DNA of 16,740 nt from Escherichia coli (lineage in GTDB: Bacteria; Pseudomonadota; Gammaproteobacteria; Enterobacterales; Enterobacteriaceae). Below, one piece after another: positions 1 to 9,214 of the stretch (its first letter is position 1; each line of letters starts with the position of its first letter). The DNA lies in the NCBI RefSeq assembly GCF_003334385.1, contig NZ_QOWN01000063.1, one strand, 5' to 3'. The notes under the pieces were generated by a model. The model had not been told where the DNA came from and made no database searches. It saw only the letters and a program-made list of their open reading frames with translations. The translations under genes were made by a program, and so were the position numbers.

Positions 1-63
1 GTTACCAAAGCTGTTCATATCCGGTACCTGATTTTCTCCTGTCCCCACATTCCTCTTTGCCGC

Positions 64-89
64 TTCTCCCAAACCAACCTTTTAGAAAA
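64..89. promoter_or_regulatory. Candidate hix/gix-like invertase crossover half-site upstream of pin
   Basis: TTCTCCCAAACC-AA-CCTTTTAGAAAA lies about 55 bp upstream of the invertase start codon. The left half and AA core resemble recalled hix/gix crossover sites (hixL about TTCTTGAAAACC AA GGTTTTTGATAA). The right half is not a good inverted copy, so this is tentative. Confidence 0.2.
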
Positions 90-143
90 TGCAGTTATTC
101 GGCTCAGATGGCATGATCCCGGATTTTTACAGGGTTATTTCTC

Positions 144-698
144 ATGCTTATTGGCTATGTACGTGTGTCAACAAATGACCAGAACACAGATCTACAACGT
201 AATGCGCTGAACTGTGCAGGATGCGAGCTGATTTTTGAAGACAAGATAAGCGGTACAAAGTCCGAAAGGCCGGGACTGAAAAAACTGCTCAGGACATTAT
301 CGGCAGGTGACACTCTGGTTGTCTGGAAACTGGATCGGCTGGGGCGCAGTATGCGGCATCTGGTCATTCTGGTTGAGGAGTTGCGCGAACGTGGCGTTAA
401 TTTTCGCAGCCTGACGGATGCTATTGATACCAGTACCCCAATGGGGCGCTTTTTCTTTCATGTGATGGGGGCCCTGGCTGAAATGGAACGAGAACTGATT
501 GTTGAACGAACAAAAGCTGGACTGGAAGCTGCTCGCGCACAGGGACGAATTGGTGGACGTCGTCCCAAACTTACACCAGAACAATGGGCGCAGGCCGGAC
601 GATTAATTGCAGCAGGAATTCCTCGCCAGAAGGTGGCGATCATCTATGATGTTGGTGTATCGACACTGTATAAGAAGTTTCCGGCCGGAGATAAATGA
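144..698 (+). CDS. pin: Serine recombinase, Pin/Gin/Hin/Cin-family DNA invertase (184 aa)
   Basis: ATG at 144. N-terminal catalytic motif MLIGYVRVSTNDQ with the nucleophilic Ser, a resolvase/invertase core (DTLVVWKLDRLGRS) and a C-terminal HTH (VAIIYDVGVSTLYKK). Length and sequence are closely similar to PinE/Gin as recalled. Confidence 0.9.
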   Translation: MLIGYVRVSTNDQNTDLQRNALNCAGCELIFEDKISGTKSERPGLKKLLRTLSAGDTLVVWKLDRLGRSMRHLVILVEELRERGVNFRSLTDAIDTSTPMGRFFFHVMGALAEMERELIVERTKAGLEAARAQGRIGGRRPKLTPEQWAQAGRLIAAGIPRQKVAIIYDVGVSTLYKKFPAGDK

Positions 699-700
699 AA

Positions 701-742
701 CCGTAGCACGTCGTATGCAAGATCGTGCTGCGGTTTATGCTT
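701..742. terminator. Hairpin between convergent pin and GIY-YIG genes (putative bidirectional rho-independent terminator)
   Basis: 10-bp stem CCGTAGCACG (701-710) pairing with CGTGCTGCGG (724-733), including one G-U pair, around a 13-nt loop. It is followed by TTTATGCTT on the + strand and by a T-rich run (complement of 690-700) on the - strand. Confidence 0.45.
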
Positions 743-755
743 ACCACTTGAAGAT

Positions 756-1625
<870 letters not shown>

Positions 1626-1709
1626 CTAACCCTTTGAATTTACATAGCGCAAAAAGATACCTTTCCTCATAATGTGAGCTAATTTTATGTTTCGTTTGAT
1701 GATCGGGTC

Positions 1710-1770
1710 GGTCTCGAAAACCGGAGTAGGGGCAACTCTACCGGGGGTTCAAATCCCCCTCTCTCCGCCA
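1710..1770 (+). pseudogene. tRNA-Ser(CGA) 3' fragment (serU-like; anticodon arm, long variable arm, T-arm, acceptor 3' strand and CCA), att-remnant-like
   Basis: GGTCTCGAAAACCGGAGTAGGGGCAACTCTACCGGGGGTTCAAATCCCCCTCTCTCCGCCA matches the 3' two-thirds of a class II tRNA-Ser with anticodon CGA. No 5' acceptor strand (GGAGAGA) is present upstream, so it is a fragment, not a gene. Confidence 0.6.
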
Positions 1771-2352
1771 CTTTATCAATGACTTATCTCCTGACTTCCC
1801 GCCTTGCTTTTCCTAAACAGAACAATCGTAGAATATTCTTGAAGGGTTAGATCGTCACTGTTTTCTGTTCGATACTGTGACATTCAGCACTTGATTCGCT
1901 ATGGATCTGACAGGAAGGTTTTGAGCGAAAATCTGCAGTTATTCAGTCGTTTTCTTATCGGTCACCATTATTCTTTTAGACATTGATCCTACAAAGCTGC
2001 CGCAAAGTTGGTGGTGGGAACTGAAGTTGCGTAGAGAAGGGGTCAATACCCGGAGGCAAACATGGGCTGGCAAAAGTGTAGCGGCATTAGGCGCAGCTAT
2101 TTAGCCTAGTTATGTTTTATGAAAACTTGATATCATATAAGTGTCTTACTTATTGGCTGTAAATAAGTTTTTCCTAAGGAATTGTTTCTTGAGTATCATT
2201 TGTAACTGTAACGGAATTTATAATCCTTTGCTTTATTGTTACGGTATTTTTTATCACACCCTATTTTTAGTGGTTTTTTATACTGAAGTTTGGCAAAGTG
2301 AACTTTATATACATATACTTCATCCTGGTTTCAGTTAAATTGGGTGGATGAT

Positions 2353-3096
2353 ATGGCAACTACATGTTCAGTTATATTGATTTTGGAGTCCTTTGATGTT
2401 TATTTCGGAAAAGAGAGTGTGTTTCTGGAGAGAGGTTCATCTGTACTTGTCGACTCTAGCTCTAGAGATTTTTTCCTGACATATCCTGAAAGAGTGATAG
2501 TGGCGGATTTTGGCGCTGAGTTTATTAGTCGCTATTTGAAAGCTAATAACTTAAGGGATATTTCTGATTGTAGGGAATATCCATCTTATTTAAAAATAAA
2601 CTTTGCTGACTTCAGTTTAATTAAAGGATTAATTAGTTGGGCTAATCACTGTGCTGAATACATAGAAATTTTTGATGAGTCTATTGCTTTTACATGTCTC
2701 TCTGCATTTTCTTCTGAAAAACAATTTGGAGTATTTCTGTTTGGATGTTTGAAAAGCACAGGGGCTAAAGTTAAAACGATTATTCATACGGATTTATCTG
2801 CACCATGGCGTCTTAAGGATATATCATCAAGATTATATCTCAGCGAAAGTTTACTAAAGAGGAAATTGAAAGAAGAGGGGGTATCATTCAGTAAGATCAT
2901 ACTTGATGAGAGGATGCAAATGGCTGAATATTTACTCAGCACTCGTTGTTATCCTATTAGTAAAGTAGCTAAGGTCTGTGGTTATGCCAGTGTCTCATAC
3001 TTTACTTATGTATTTAGACGTTATTTTGGTGTTTCTCCAAGTCAATACTCTCAGAGGAGTTCAGAAAGTAAAATTCTTACTCACCAGGGAATCTGA
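2353..3096 (+). CDS. AraC/XylS-family transcriptional regulator (Rns/AggR/ToxT-like size, about 247 aa) in AT-rich DNA
   Basis: C-terminal double HTH typical of AraC family (WRLKDISSRLYLSESLLKRKLKEEGVSFSKI...VAKVCGYASVSYFTYVFRRYFGVSPSQY). Strongly AT-rich codon usage unlike the flanking core genes. The ORF track starts at GTG 2344; the first ATG is at 2353 with a GGGTGG purine tract upstream. Confidence 0.75.
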   Translation: MATTCSVILILESFDVYFGKESVFLERGSSVLVDSSSRDFFLTYPERVIVADFGAEFISRYLKANNLRDISDCREYPSYLKINFADFSLIKGLISWANHCAEYIEIFDESIAFTCLSAFSSEKQFGVFLFGCLKSTGAKVKTIIHTDLSAPWRLKDISSRLYLSESLLKRKLKEEGVSFSKIILDERMQMAEYLLSTRCYPISKVAKVCGYASVSYFTYVFRRYFGVSPSQYSQRSSESKILTHQGI

Positions 3097-3100
3097 TCAT

Positions 3101-3600
3101 TGTTCTTGCCCCCTTATTTCCAGACAGGGGGTGTATCTTAAGTTAACGTTACCCGCTGACGTCGATATTCTCGCGGAGAGCGATAACCCAACGCACTGTG
3201 CGGATGGTGTTCATTGTAATGTTCGATCGCCACTGCAAGATTATGCAATGCCGTTCTTACATTCGGTTTCGGCATGAACGCGATGTAGTCTTCCTTCATC
3301 GTTTTCACGAACCTTTCTGCAATTCCATTACTCTGAGGACTGCTGATTGCCGTTGTGCAGGGCTCCAGATTCAACTCTCTGGCGAACTGCCGTGTTTCAT
3401 GCGCTCTATACGCTGAACCGTTATCTGTCAGCCACTGGATGGACTGTTCCGGTACTTTATCGCCGAAGCGTTTTTCTATCGCTCCTAACATGACATCCTG
3501 CACTGTCGCTTTATCGTAACCTCCCGTGCTTGCGGCCCAGTCTATGGCTTCACGATCGCAACAGTCCAGGGCGATTCATCTGGGCCAATCCTCGCTCATA
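3101..3600 (-). mobile_element. Truncated IS3-family (IS2-group) insertion sequence remnant
   Basis: Terminal sequence TGTTCTTGCCCCCTTATTTCCAGACAGG at 3101-3128 resembles the IS2 inverted-repeat end (TGGATTTGCCCCTATATTTCCAGACATC as recalled). It is followed by the C-terminal part of an IS2 InsD-like transposase. The inner boundary is uncertain and no second terminal repeat was identified. Confidence 0.65.
3138..3575 (-). pseudogene. IS2 InsD-like (IS3 family OrfB) transposase, C-terminal fragment only
   Basis: Translation ...[31 protein letters not shown]...[51 protein letters not shown]...[18 protein letters not shown] has the DDE-core C-terminal signature of IS2-type transposases. The frame is closed by a stop at 3576-3578; the N-terminal half and the OrfA gene are absent. 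Confidence 0.7.
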
Positions 3601-3850
3601 ACAGGCATTCACTTCAGTCATGGCAGAAAGGTATGCATGCTGGAGAAGTCGTGAAAGAAAAGAAGACTGCTGCGCCGTTTGTCGTCACGTTTATCTTCAT
3701 TGGCTATGCAAGTCGTAATACAAGGTGGGACAAAACTGAGACACATAAGGCCTCGCAATGGCTTGCAAGGCTTTACATGTTTTGATGTGGTGGGACGTGT
3801 GAGCGCAGTGTTGATGGGGTAATGCTTTGAATTAGAAGCGGATTCTTATA

Positions 3851-3895
3851 ATTCGTAATGCGAAGGTCGTAGGTTCGACTCCTATTATCGCACCA
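3851..3895 (+). pseudogene. ptwF: tRNA-Thr(CGU) 3' fragment (thrW-like; corresponds to the ptwF pseudo-tRNA of K-12), island right-end att remnant
   Basis: ATTCGTAATGCGAAGGTCGTAGGTTCGACTCCTATTATCG-CACCA matches tRNA-Thr from the anticodon loop (CGT) to CCA with one G missing near the 3' end. No 5' half is present. It lies immediately before the core yagP-pao genes. Confidence 0.7.
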
Positions 3896-4021
3896 TTAAA
3901 ATCAAAGAGTTACCCCATATTTAAATACACCACGTTTCCTCCTGTGCCGTATTTGTGCCATTGTAACCTTGGCAATTCATCAAAATACTGTTCTGACATC
4001 AGGCAGTGCAGGTGCAGACAT

Positions 4022-4432
4022 TTAAGCCAATTGCTGCCGCCATTCTTTGACGTAGTCAATCAGGGCGCGGAGCTTTGGTGCAATATTGCGACGCTGTGGG
4101 AAATACAGATAGAAGCCCGGAAATTGTGGAAGAAAGTCATCAAGCAGCGATACAAGCTTACCGCTTTCAATATATGGCCTGAAAGTTTCCTGAGTGGCAA
4201 TTGTTATTCCTCCGCCGGCAAGAGCCAGCCTCAACATCAGACGCAGATCATTAGTCGTAATCTGCGGTTCAATCGCAAGGTCGAAAGTTCTCCCGTTTTC
4301 TTCAAATGGCCAGCGATAAGGCGCAACCTCCGGGGACTGACGCCAGCCGATACACTTATGGGTATTTCCCCCGGAGGCGAGAAAGCGCTCTCCACGCCCG
4401 GCCGCAAGGATCAGGACGACGGGGGCAGGCAT
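4022..4432 (-). pseudogene. yagP: LysR-family regulator remnant, C-terminal effector-binding portion only (136 aa)
   Basis: Translation from the internal ATG at 4432 gives 136 aa with a LysR C-terminal domain signature (...GGGITIATQETFRPYIESGKLVSLLDDFLPQFPGFYLYFPQRRNIAPKLRALIDYV). No HTH domain is present. Its 5' end overlaps the paoD stop region (4411-4432). Position and length match K-12 yagP. Confidence 0.6.
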
Positions 4433-5367
4433 GAATCCTCCTCCTGATGGAGACGTACAGAGGCGACTTCTGCCAGCACGGAGAGTGCCAGAGTATGCGC
4501 ATCCCGGGCTTTGGGGAATATCCCGACGGGTGCCCGGATTTGCGTTGTTTCCTCCCTGGACCATCCCAGCTCGTGGAGCTTTTGCAGACGTAACGTGTGG
4601 GTTCGATAGCTGCCCAATGCGCCGAGATAAAAGGGTTTTGCTTCTCGCGCGGCCTGCAACACTGGCAGCTCCCGGTTGAGATCATGGCACAGCAAAATGA
4701 CCGCCGTATCGGTATCGATCTGAGCGCTGGCTGAGGCCGGAAAAAGATCGAAGATATGGCTGTCATAGCCTGTGGCTGCTGCAAGACTCGCGGTTGCCTG
4801 CGCCTCAAGAGAACGTCCGTAAATCATCAGCCTGACGCATGGCCTGAACCCCACCTCAAAGCCATTGAGATTCCAGCCCGTCCGGGTTTGCGTGGGCAGG
4901 CACACCAGCGATTGTGCTTGCGGATCGTAGCGCAGCCCCACCGGTTTTCTCTGTTCCAGGCGGTTCAGCACGGCGAGCAGAGGCTGTGCCGAGCGTAGTT
5001 TATGGAGCGTCAGCGTGATCCCACCGCCGCAGGGCAGAACGATGTCAAACCACGGCGAACCTTCGCCATAGCGAATTTCGCGATCGCGGCCTGAGCCCAT
5101 CATCTCCAGCGCTTCAAAAGCGGCAGCGGCCTCCACGCAGCCGCCAGAGACAAAACCGCAGTAACGACCATCTTCGCGCACCACCATCTGCGCCCCGAGC
5201 GGGCGCGCCGCGCCGCCGCGTATCTCCACCAGCGTCACCAGCACCGCTCCTTTACCGGACATTAGCGCCTCTACGGCGAAGCGCAGAATGGTCCGGTGGT
5301 CATCGGTGAGAAACGCCTGCTCTGGCTTATGCCAGTGTTCGTCTTTGTCAAAAAGCGGGTATGACAT
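4411..5367 (-). CDS. paoD: Molybdenum cofactor insertion chaperone, XdhC family (318 aa)
   Basis: ATG at 5365-5367 with a GGAGGA Shine-Dalgarno sequence 4-9 nt upstream. 318 aa, last gene after paoC. Length and position match K-12 PaoD (YagQ). Confidence 0.9.
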   Translation of the reverse strand: MSYPLFDKDEHWHKPEQAFLTDDHRTILRFAVEALMSGKGAVLVTLVEIRGGAARPLGAQMVVREDGRYCGFVSGGCVEAAAAFEALEMMGSGRDREIRYGEGSPWFDIVLPCGGGITLTLHKLRSAQPLLAVLNRLEQRKPVGLRYDPQAQSLVCLPTQTRTGWNLNGFEVGFRPCVRLMIYGRSLEAQATASLAAATGYDSHIFDLFPASASAQIDTDTAVILLCHDLNRELPVLQAAREAKPFYLGALGSYRTHTLRLQKLHELGWSREETTQIRAPVGIFPKARDAHTLALSVLAEVASVRLHQEEDSCLPPSS

Positions 5368-5376
5368 TGTTCCTCC

Positions 5377-7575
5377 TTAAACCACATCCGGCAGCTTATC
5401 GAGCAGCTTATCCAGAGTGATGGGATAATCCCGTACCCGAATACCGGTGGCGTTATACACCGCGTTGGCGATAGCCGCGCTCACGCCGCACAGGCCCAGC
5501 TCACCGACACCTTTGGCCTTCATCGGGGAGGATATGGGGTCGGTATCATCCAGGAAAATCACCTCCTGTTTTGGGATATCCGCATGAACCGGCACCTCAT
5601 ACCCCGCCATATCGTGATTAACGAAGTAGCCCAAACGGTCATCCACCGCCAGCTCCTCCATCAGTGCCGCGCCCATGCCCATAGTCATTGCGCCAATGAC
5701 CTGGCTGCGCGCAGTTTTCGGATTCAGGATGCGTCCTGCAGCACACACAGCGAGCATACGCCGGACCCGAACTTCTCCCGTCGCGCTATGCACGCCGACC
5801 TCCACAAAATGCCCGGCAAAGGTCGACTGCTGGTACTCTTTGCTCAGTGTTCCGAATTCAATGCTCTCTTCCGCTGTCAGTCTGCCGCCTGCGGTGGCTT
5901 CATGTAGCGTGGCGCTTCGGGTACCGTTGGTAATCTTGCCGTCGGCAAACTGCGACTGCTCAGGATCAAACCCGACTGCCGAGGCAATCATTTCGCGAAG
6001 CTTCATACAGGCGGCGTAAACGCCGGAGGTGGAGGTATTCGCGCCCCATTGTCCACCAGAACCCGCAGAAACCGGGAAACTGGAATCGCCGAGGTGAACC
6101 GCAACCTGCTCCAGCGGTACGCCAAGCATTTCCGCTGCCGTCTGGGCCAGAATGGTGTAGCTGCCGGTGCCAATGTCGGTCATGTCCGTTTCTACGGTAA
6201 CGGTGCCGTTTTGTTCGAGGTGAACCCGAGCACCCGATTTTTCCAGCAGATTATTGCGAAAGCCCGCCGCAACACCGTGGCCGACTAGCCACTCCCCGTC
6301 GCGCACCTGTCCGGGTGTGGCGTTGCGCTGCTTCCAGCCAAATTTATCCGCTCCGGTGCGCAAGCACTCGATAAGCTGACGGCGAGAGAAGCAGCGCGTC
6401 GGGTCGGCGGGGTCAACCTGAGTGTCATTCAGGATGCGAAACTCGACGGGATCGATGCCCGCTTTTTCCGCCAGTTCGTCGATCGCGATTTCGAGCGCCA
6501 TCAGACCGGGGGCTTCGCCGGGCGCACGCATGGCGTTCCCTTCCGGCAAATCAAGCGTGGCGAGCCGCAGGCCGGTATGACGATTCGCCCCGGCGTAGAG
6601 TAATTCGCTTTGCTGTACCGCCGTTTCCGGCGTGCCGCCGGGCAGGTTTCCAGACCAGCTTTCATGTGAGATAGCGGTGATTTTCCCGCTCTGGTCGGCA
6701 CCGATACGCAAGTGCTGAAGGGTGGCGGGGCGGTGCGTGGTGTTATTGGGAATAGAGGGGCGGGGGAGCATCACTTTAACCGGACGTTTCACCGCTCGGG
6801 CGGCGAGGGCCGCCAGCAGCGCATCGCTTCTCAGGAACAGCTTGCCGCCAAACCCTCCGCCGATATACGGGGAGATAATACGCACATTCTCCACGGGAAC
6901 TTTCAGCGTTTTTGCCAGATCGGTGCGGCACCAGTCAATCATCTGATTTGAGGTCCAGAGGGTAAGCTTATTTCCATCCCAGACGGCCATCGAGGCATGC
7001 GGCTCCATCGCCATATGGCTCTGGTCCGGGGTCGTGTAGGTAGCATCAATCTTCACCGCAGCGGAGGTGAAAGCCCCGTCAAAGTCACCGACGTTTTTGT
7101 CGGGCGTGTCTTCCGGCGGCTGATTGACGGCCTGTTTTTCGTCCGCCAGGGAGTAAGCTCCTTTATTACGGCGATAGTGTGCCTGCACCAGCGAGGCCGC
7201 CGCTCGCGCCTGTTCGAAGGTCTCGGCCACTACCAGCGCAATGGCCTGATGATAGTGCTCAATAGTGGGGCCGCCTAACAGCCTGGCGGTGTTTTTGTCG
7301 CCTTTGCCGAGTGCCCCGGCGTTACTGGCGGTAATGACAGCCAGTACGCCCGGCGCTTTTTGCGCGGCGTCCGTATCAAGGGCGGTGAGGCGTCCTTTGG
7401 CAATGGCGGAACCGACGATATAGCCATAGGCGGCGTTGGGGGCTTCTTCATGCCATTCGTAGGCGTAGCGTGCCGTGCCGGTAGTTTTCAGCGGTCCGTC
7501 GATGCGGTCATGGGGACGACCGACAACCTTCAGCTGATCGATCGGGTTTTCCCCTGCGGGTTTATCAAATTTCAT
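5377..7575 (-). CDS. paoC: Aldehyde oxidoreductase molybdopterin-binding large subunit (732 aa)
   Basis: 732-aa xanthine dehydrogenase-family molybdenum subunit ([21 protein letters not shown]...; GGGFGGK motif). Start ATG overlaps the paoB stop as ATGA at 7572-7575. Confidence 0.95.
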
Positions 7576-8528
7576 GCCTGTGCCCTCGCTTCAGCCAGTA
7601 CGGAGGCAAGCGTTCGCTTCGCCAACAGGAGTTTAAAGGTGTTTTCAGCGGTGGGATGGGCGCTGGCGAACAGCGTGTCATATACGGCCTGCGCCCCCTG
7701 GGATAGCTGAGCATCCGCAGCCTCAATGCGCCAGGGCTTATGTGCTACTCCGCCCAGCGCGACGCGCCCGCTGCCGTCAGGCTGAATAATCGCCGCGACC
7801 GATACCAGGGCAAAGGCGTAGGAGGCGCGATCGCGCACCTTACGGTAGATATGTTTTCCGCCGAGCGGTGGAGGTAACGTCACCGCAACGATAAGCTCAC
7901 CGGGAAGCAGGGCGGTTTCAATGTGCGGCGTTTTTCCCGGAGGGTGATAAAAATCAGCCAGTGTGATACTGCGAGTCTTTCCCTCCGGCGTGATGGTTTC
8001 CACCACCGCATCCAGCAACCGCATTGCGACCGCCATATCGCTCGGATGGGTGGCAATGCAGGCTTCGCTTACGCCTACCACCGCGTGCTGACGGCTAAAG
8101 CCTTCAAGCGCCGCGCAGCCGCTCCCGGGCAGGCGCTTATTGCAGGGCTGATTGGTGTCGTAAAAATAGGGGCAGCGCGTGCGCTGGAGCAGATTACCTG
8201 CGGTGGTTGCCTGATTACGTAACTGACCAGACGCGCCAGCGAGCAGGGCGCGGGAGAGTACCGCGTAATCACGACGCACGCGCTCGTGAGCCGCCAGGTC
8301 GGTGTTCCGTACCAGTGCGCCGATGCGCAGCCCACCCGCGTCGGTCACTTCAATCTTATCGAGCCCGAGGCCGTTCACATCGATAAGGTGGGTGGGCGTT
8401 TCAATTTCCAGCTTCATCAGGTCCAGCAGATTGGTCCCGCCCGCGATAAATTTTGCGCCGGGTACGCGCTGAGCGCTAAGTGCCGCCTCGGCTGGGGTAT
8501 TCACTCGTTCATAGGTAAACGCCTTCAT
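7572..8528 (-). CDS. paoB: Aldehyde oxidoreductase FAD-binding medium subunit (318 aa)
   Basis: 318-aa CO dehydrogenase/XDH medium-subunit-like protein with an FAD-binding fold ([11 protein letters not shown]) and a Cys-rich insert ([11 protein letters not shown]...GSGC). Start overlaps the paoA stop as ATGA at 8525-8528. Confidence 0.95.
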
Positions 8529-9214
8529 GATTTTATCTCCCCCGCAGCATCTTCAATGGCGGCAAGGATGTTAGCGTATGCACCACAGCGACAGATGTTG
8601 CCGCTCATACGTTCACGGATCTCATCGGCAGTTGTTTCTGGAGCGGAAACCAAATCGACCGTGACGTGACTGGGAATGCCGTCCTGAATCTCTTTTAGCA
8701 CCGCTACTGATGAGCAAATTTGCCCGGAGGTGCAGTAGCCGCACTGGAAGCCATCATGCTTGATAAAGGCCGCCTGCATGGGGTGAAGATTATCTGGCGA
8801 ACCCAGGCCTTCAATGGTGGTGATCTCGGCCCCCTGATGCATGACTGCAAGCGTCAGGCAGGCATTAAGCCTGCGACCATTGACCAGCACGGTACAGGCT
8901 CCGCACTGTCCGTGATCGCAACCTTTCTTGGTACCGATCAAATGCAGATTTTCACGCAAAGTGTCCAGTAGCGTGGTTCGGGTATCCACCTCAAGCTGCT
9001 CGGTTTTGCCGTTCACCTTCAGTGTCAGGGGCATTATCTCTGGCGCGGGTGTAGCTGCCGGAACGCTTGCCGCCAGCGTAGAATGAGGATAAACCACGGC
9101 GGTCGCCGCTGTTGCGGCGCTCACTTTAATCAGATCGCGACGGGTCAAACTTAAATCGTGCGGCTCGTGCTTCCCAACCCGATTATCTTCGGGGTATTCG
9201 CCTTGGTTGCTCAT
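8525..9214 (-). CDS. paoA: Aldehyde oxidoreductase iron-sulfur small subunit with twin-arginine (Tat) signal peptide (229 aa)
   Basis: N-terminal Tat motif [17 protein letters not shown], and two [2Fe-2S] Cys motifs ([19 protein letters not shown]...CRCGAY). GGAGG Shine-Dalgarno sequence upstream of ATG 9212-9214. Confidence 0.95.

Follow-up and report, generated by a model that had tools for sequence, protein, structure and literature searches.

Immediately to the left of yagP, the Escherichia coli DNA analyzed here (16,740 nucleotides, referred to below as the window) contains an incomplete copy of the tRNA-Thr gene thrW that lacks a single G, and this raises the question whether such a flawed copy is the decayed attachment site of an old element that can no longer leave the chromosome, as the preliminary description of the locus had proposed, or whether the flaw has another origin. 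Positions 3851-3895 of the window read ATTCGTAATGCGAAGGTCGTAGGTTCGACTCCTATTATCGCACCA, which can also be written as ATTCGTAATGCGAAGGTCGTAGGTTCGACTCCTATTATC-G-CACCA. Alignment with the intact thrW at the empty site of strain KCTC 2571, with K-12 ptwF and with EC93 demonstrated that these positions correspond to nucleotides 31-76 of thrW, the gene for tRNA-Thr(CGU), minus one G, with 45 of the 46 nucleotides of the thrW 3' end present and the absent G being one of the GG at tRNA positions 70/71. The match between the fragment and thrW is far beyond chance: its BLAST E-value was 5e-17, and either half of the fragment is present a single time in the window but in none of 200 shuffles. With only nucleotides 31-76 there, and no complete cloverleaf, the fragment is not a functional tRNA gene. 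ARAGORN detected no tRNA gene in the whole window and Rfam, run in E-value mode, gave no match between positions 3000 and 5000; both blanks are expected because the fragment is just 45 nucleotides long.

The surroundings of the fragment differ on its two sides (Table 1). On the left, the GC content is 0.33-0.46 (positions 2000-3500), compared to 0.54-0.63 on the right (positions 4000-9000). The CCA end of the fragment at 3895 is followed after 126 bp by the edge of the yagP pseudogene at 4022, and the genes to the right of yagP, paoDCBA, yagU, ykgJ and ecpEDCB, stand in the same order as in K-12. The alignment with intact thrW, the list of open reading frames, the collinearity with K-12 and strain 2824, and the shift in composition and gene content thus bear out what had been described for this junction, namely a tRNA-Thr 3' fragment without one G of the acceptor strand, the yagP-pao genes 126 bp behind it, and DNA of a different kind to its left.

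Table 1. Features of the probable attR junction and of the DNA on either side of it (positions in the window)
Feature	Positions	Strand	Basis or remark
Prophage right-end cargo	144..3096	.	similarity to 2824 and Sakai Sp1
pinE invertase	144-698	+	
GIY-YIG protein	756-1529	-	
AraC-family regulator	2353-3096	+	
IS3-family transposase remnant, integrase core domain, N-terminus missing	3138..3572	-	annotation of EC93, 2824 and Sakai Sp1 by collinearity
Phage-derived arm of attR (P arm of attP)	3724..3850	+	homology to Shigella phage attP
att common core, thrW nucleotides 31-76	3851..3895	+	alignments; published 46-base core
Anticodon-loop segment TTCGTAA, anticodon CGT at 3854-3856	3852..3858	+	most likely crossover region
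1-nt deletion, GC for GGC, acceptor-stem 3' strand	3890..3891	+	alignments
Chromosomal spacer downstream of thrW, bacterial side of attR	3896..4021	.	identical after intact thrW at empty sites
yagP pseudogene, LysR substrate-binding fragment without N-terminus, first core gene	4022..4360	-	RefSeq collinear loci in K-12, KCTC 2571, EC93 and 2824; list of open reading frames
paoD	4411-5367		after yagP

Positions 3724-3895 very probably represent the attR of a lambdoid prophage that was inserted into thrW by a tyrosine integrase of the SfII/SfV/P22 type. When positions 3560-3900 were searched against a phage collection, the stretch from 3726 to 3900 matched the attP regions of the Shigella phages SfIV (97.7% identity), SfI (96.6%), SfII (96.0%) and SfV (95.5%), of which those of SfII and SfI are annotated as 'similar to P22'. 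Starting at 3726, the attP of SfII tracks the window until the core ends, where it splits off into its second arm toward int. The 46-base att core of SfI, SfII, SfV, SfX and P22 has been published as ATTCGTAATGCGAAGGTCGTAGGTTCGACTCCTATTATCGGCACCA (PMC3636060), which equals the fragment in the window plus one G. Because of the SfII alignment and the published core, positions 3724-3850 were assigned to the phage arm, 3851-3895 to the core, and the DNA from 3896 onward to the bacterial chromosome. Every testable feature that defines an attR of the SfII/SfV/P22 type was found here: about 125 bp of homology to a characterised attP next to the core, a 46-bp core equal to the thrW 3' end at 45 of 46 positions with a single 1-nt deletion, and a bacterial flank that is the sequence following thrW at unoccupied sites. 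As a kind of feature, the junction is an ordinary, textbook attR of a sort already known.

Within the phage arm, GGTGGGAC occurs twice (3724-3731 and 3789-3796, 65 bp apart) where 0.34 occurrences are expected, and the two copies are candidate arm-type Int sites. A hairpin at 3750-3771 scores as a terminator on the minus strand, and the same place is annotated as 'terminator' in the SfII record KC736978.1; it is a putative terminator downstream of int across attP. The att core is also bracketed by an imperfect inverted repeat of 20 nt (85% complementary), with one half in the phage arm (3814-3833) and the other in the chromosome just past thrW (3899-3918), and the second arm of the SfII attP is likewise similar to the post-thrW chromosomal sequence over about 20 nt. 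This repeat and the likeness of the second arm may go back to the event by which the phage obtained its attP, or may represent a symmetric protein-binding site.

The window contains just the last 3.85 kb of the element. Positions 16-3850 share 99.69% identity with strain 2824 (over 3,835 bp) and 99.0% with Sp1, a prophage of O157 Sakai. In 2824, this island end closes a lambdoid prophage that is about 43.7 kb long and has thrW, int and xis on the opposite side. The left part of the 2824 prophage comprises thrW, the integrase gene, an excisionase-like HTH gene, exo/bet/gam, N, rexAB, cI, cro and cII, followed in the middle by O, P, nin, Q and genes for lysis, terminase, head and contractile tail (one interrupted by an IS3), and in the right part by the tail fibre, pin, GIY-YIG and AraC genes, the IS3 remnant and attR. 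The integrase of 2824 is 99.7% identical to the Int of a gtr-carrying prophage in CFSAN061762 and 100% identical to the C-terminal 205 amino acids of SfII Int, and the other end of the element, with thrW and the cognate integrase and excisionase genes, was found in 2824, CFSAN061762 and Sakai (where intD is annotated as a pseudogene). The IS3 remnant, labelled 'ISEc48 Family: IS3 partial' in Sakai Sp1, is the last island gene before attR. At its left edge (positions 1-90), the window starts inside a Pin-invertible tail-fibre segment, with relatives matching from base 16 or from 56-64 only, and TTCTCCCAAACCAACCTTTTAGAAAA at 63-88, near pinE, resembles a Pin/Gin-type crossover site.

The position at which the conserved chromosome begins was mapped in a set of 5,426 complete E. 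coli genomes. Matches to positions 3300-4600 were obtained in 5,423 of these genomes, at least 80% of the query being covered in just 24; for positions 3700-4000, the same coverage was reached in 495. Alignment with the window starts at 3851 in K-12 and in the empty-site genome KCTC 2571 (proB-proA-thrW-yagP), and at 3880 in genomes with an island ended by CbtA/YeeU (NDM5 type), in which the overlap with the fragment comprises the last T-loop base, the 3' strands of the T-stem and acceptor stem, the discriminator base with CCA, and nothing further. Among genomes with other lambdoid prophages, it starts at 3726 in CFSAN061762 and at 3589-3592 in ST540, NMBU-W12E19 and LAU-OXA; EC93 and 2824 align with the window all the way across the junction. 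To the left of the breakpoint shared by K-12 and the empty site, homology is confined to genomes that carry prophages of the same integrase family. A conserved core extending left of 3851, to which the homology in about 9% of the genomes might point, was rejected, this homology stopping at 3726 or 3589-3592, matching phage attP arms and being absent at empty sites. To the right, positions 3896-5350 show 0-5 differences from the flanks of the empty sites (proA-thrW-yagP) in KCTC 2571, SW070919 and EC24.26, the latter two being identical to the window. The right-hand limit of the variable DNA at thrW, which the preliminary description had put at 3851 on the understanding that most strains would not share conserved core further left, therefore holds to the base when K-12 and other strains are aligned.

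The one-G form of the thrW 3' end is not peculiar to this island. It lies beside six island ends, those of the window, CFSAN061762 (gtrA), ST540, NMBU-W12E19, LAU-OXA and the NDM5 type (CbtA), and GG is present instead in EC93 and 2824, the two genomes checked that share the island end of the window. The exact 45-nt one-G form was found in at least 103 records, and 628 records fall into the band of at least 99% identity for positions 3851-3940, a band that also takes in the short copies of the NDM5 type; overall, the allele is present in about 600 of the 5,426 complete E. coli genomes, roughly 1 in 9. Over positions 3896-5350, five one-G genomes are identical to the window, as compared to 1 difference in K-12, 10 in EC93 and 19 in 2824, and over the 12.8 kb from 3896 to 16740 only 5 and 4 differences separate the window from LAU-OXA and NMBU-W12E19, respectively, as opposed to 111 from 2824. 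Since the island side resembles 2824 and the chromosomal side resembles LAU-OXA and NMBU-W12E19, the ancestry of the window switches inside the core. Judged from these sequence comparisons, the single G belongs to the chromosomal side and not to the island. A further genome with the single G, 02B21CPO003B, differs from the window at 21 positions over 3896-5350, and this divergent flank indicates that the allele has either recombined or arisen more than once.

The combination of this island end with one G was found in none of the 5,426 complete RefSeq genomes, the best match being EC93 with 99.5%, and no complete RefSeq E. coli genome matches the entire window, the best reaching 99.2%. This unmatched pairing of island and backbone, together with the existence of nearly identical backbones (4-5 differing sites in 12.8 kb) that carry other cargo, suggests recent turnover at the locus rather than an ancient resident.

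The one-G allele also occurs in complete copies of the gene. A longer query, consisting of the full-length one-G thrW, matched 5,410 of the 5,426 genomes, with exact matches in 3, namely SW070919, EC24.26 and 02B21CPO003B. In SW070919 and EC24.26, the full-length one-G thrW (positions 2501-2575 of loci L012 and L013, respectively) lies at an unoccupied proA-thrW-yagP site with a flank identical to that of the window; it is annotated as tRNA-Thr in RefSeq and called as a 74-nt tRNA-Thr(cgt) by ARAGORN. In the fold predicted for it, the cloverleaf is retained and one C bulges out of the acceptor stem, at -19.3 compared to -26.4 kcal/mol, a loss of about 7. In 02B21CPO003B (locus L014, 2501-2575), the full-length one-G copy closes an island on its right side and borders immediately on yagP, and the genome has three thrW-like places.

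An anticodon-centred 'A' class of att sites in tRNA genes has been defined (PMC4383910). The block of identity between the window and thrW begins 1 base ahead of the anticodon loop, and in CFSAN061762, a one-G lysogen, thrW at attL has GG followed by the second phage arm, as opposed to the single G of attR, a split that puts the crossover to the left of 3890. The start of the identity block and the split in CFSAN061762 point to the anticodon loop (3852-3858) as the most likely site of crossover. In P22-type systems, the overlap reportedly lies in the anticodon loop, and the core-type Int sites are said to lie in the anticodon stem.

In the mechanism that we propose, attP would carry a 46-bp copy of the thrW 3' end between two arms, and the integrase would recombine it with the tRNA gene. 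The phage-borne 3' copy would thereby restore an intact thrW at the left (far) end of the prophage, beside int and xis, and the original thrW 3' end of the host would be pushed to the right end and fused there to the phage arm. The division of GG and one G between the two ends in CFSAN061762 is what is expected if the phage copy rebuilds the gene and the host 3' end is displaced. Because of this displacement, the DNA from about 3859 rightward would be chromosomal, with phage DNA to the left of the crossover, and the missing G would be an allele of the host backbone that is inherited with the flank and kept while the islands to its left are swapped. A 2824/Sp1-like phage might have entered a one-G thrW directly, or it might have entered a one-G backbone whose earlier island disappeared afterwards. 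The sequence produced is the same in both cases, so that the window does not discriminate between them; under either route, the deletion is older than, or independent of, the arrival of the island. We infer both the direction in which these events ran and the path that led to the arrangement now seen.

According to the preliminary description, the att copy had decayed, and the element was taken to be old and probably no longer excisable. That the G was lost in situ from the att copy of this island, the island being ancient and unable to excise, appears very unlikely to us. The copy is imperfect, an IS3 remnant lies at the island end, and Sp1, its relative in O157 Sakai, is heavily degraded and gave no circular form in experiments (PMC2669165). 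However, EC93 and 2824 have the same island end with GG, and one G is common to five other island types as well as to empty sites on the same flank haplotype. The island side is also 99.69% identical to a nearly complete 44-kb prophage, the deletion is located 32 nt from the inferred crossover, and Sp1 fails to circularise although its core has GG. The flaw in the att copy lends no support to an old age of the element, since one G tracks the flank, across six island ends and empty sites, and not the island. That the G was lost independently and recurrently, by replication slippage in the GG, or is missing through an assembly error in this genome, can be regarded as very improbable. One one-G genome does sit on a very different flank haplotype, but over 1.4-12.8 kb the window matches other one-G genomes in its flank, about 600 assemblies of varied years, laboratories and hosts contain the allele, and neither slippage nor homopolymer sequencing error is to be expected in a run of two bases. 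A sequencing artefact was likewise rejected because of the number and diversity of the assemblies with the missing G.

A hybrid att site is conceivable, if on balance unlikely. A P22-type prophage in tandem with a second island, for instance of the CbtA/YeeU type with its 16-17-nt T-loop att, would have been resolved by loss of the inner island, joining the 46-nt copy to the outermost one-G copy. Tandem arrays do occur at this locus (thrW-Sp1-att-Sp2 in Sakai), and NDM5-type genomes combine a one-G 16-nt att with a flank 100% identical to that of the window. Nevertheless, such a history is not needed, given that an empty one-G thrW with the same flank exists and direct integration into it gives the same product; moreover, a single att copy is left in the window, and resolution of a tandem array and direct integration result in identical sequence.

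The inability to excise that had been ascribed to the element is not supported by the deletion either. The missing base, 32 nt away from the anticodon loop as the likely crossover site, probably lies outside the core-binding sites that Int needs and would be no block to the enzyme. The failure of Sp1 to form circles despite the GG in its core implies that integrity of the core is no predictor of excision, and that int, xis and their regulation set the competence of an element. For the element in the window, excision depends on int and xis and on the left end, all of which lie beyond the window. This element may be mobile or may, for other reasons, be non-excisable, and the missing G is of little help in deciding between the two.

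A more speculative notion, which we consider doubtful, is that a one-G attR makes loss of the island costly: the element that fills the site in this lineage would supply the sole intact thrW 3' end and would be stabilised by doing so, lysogeny having repaired the tRNA gene. If this is true, precise excision would join the 5' half of thrW to the one-G 3' end and yield a tRNA-Thr(CGU) with a bulged acceptor stem. One G was found at attR in about 600 genomes and in empty-site thrW in 2, as raw counts across clonally related genomes, whereas empty sites are common among GG genomes with a flank of the window type; the imbalance is consistent with a stabilisation of islands by the allele. The one-G thrW genes, including those at the two empty sites, offer a natural test of prophage rescue of a damaged tRNA gene and of the retention that would follow.

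Among known systems, the attR sites of SfI, SfII, SfV, SfX and P22 are closely similar to the junction described here: the core differs by just one G, identity in the attP arm amounts to 95-98% across about 125 bp, the chromosomal site is the one beside proA-thrW, and the integrase of the relatives is identical to SfII Int in its C-terminal 205 amino acids. In contrast to the Shigella phages, the cargo next to attR is not gtrABC but pinE, the GIY-YIG and AraC genes and the IS3 remnant, and the downstream core gene is yagP, whereas the work in S. flexneri used a yaiC primer. Sp1 (CP-933H) of O157:H7 Sakai and EDL933 shares the att core and is 99.0% identical over positions 16-3850. However, GG is present in its att copy, behind which the P4-like Sp2 stands in tandem instead of yagP, and Sp1 is a 10.6-kb remnant as opposed to the prophage of about 44 kb that has the closest island end, that of 2824. 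In O157 Sakai (locus L015, 12866), homology to the window ends exactly at the end of the att core (3896), and Sp2 with intS follows; Sp1 and Sp2 form a tandem array that uses the attR copy of Sp1.

Similarly, K-12 ptwF, the thrW pseudogene at the right end of CP4-6, is a displaced thrW 3' fragment in the same position, followed by the same spacer and yagP. It differs from the fragment in the window by having GG and by an identity to thrW that reaches three bases further 5' (CGC), and the DNA to its left, with intF of CP4-6, is unrelated to the window, homology starting at 3851. The window also lacks intF next to the fragment, which is the mark of the CP4-6 right end. Since the DNA on the left is unrelated, ptwF and the fragment in the window mark different elements. 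The general arrangement, in which the island restores the gene and a displaced fragment marks the far end, with an 'A' type att, is that of the tRNA islands described by Islander (PMC4383910), from which the present case differs in nothing essential; the variant base in its displaced fragment would derive from the host and not from decay.

What is added to the known is solely that the single-G variant is a widespread host allele which outlasts the replacement of islands. If attR beyond the crossover is host DNA, this part can survive several generations of islands, and a single-base flaw in a displaced tRNA fragment would be no gauge of the age or immobility of the adjacent island. The att core forms a sharp switch here, the island on one side being common to certain strains and the backbone on the other side to different ones, which is useful for mapping island boundaries and for dating prophages from the decay of their att sites.

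Apart from the thrW junction, two features were noted further to the right in the window. The final 72 bases (16669-16740) are the end of an IS4-family element (IS421/IS186-like) between ecpA and ecpB, about 37 bp upstream of ecpB, and an exact match to this junction was present, among the matches listed, only in SCU-104, LAU-OXA and ETEC4085; the insertion may separate ecpB-E from the ecpR/ecpA promoter. At about 10259-10264, in the gap between yagU and ykgJ, the window is without 36 bp (TGGCGCAAATACAGCGCCATTTTTATAGGTTAAAAA) that all compared relatives have, a segment with a GC hairpin and a T run that resembles a yagU terminator and is flanked by a direct repeat of TAAAAA.
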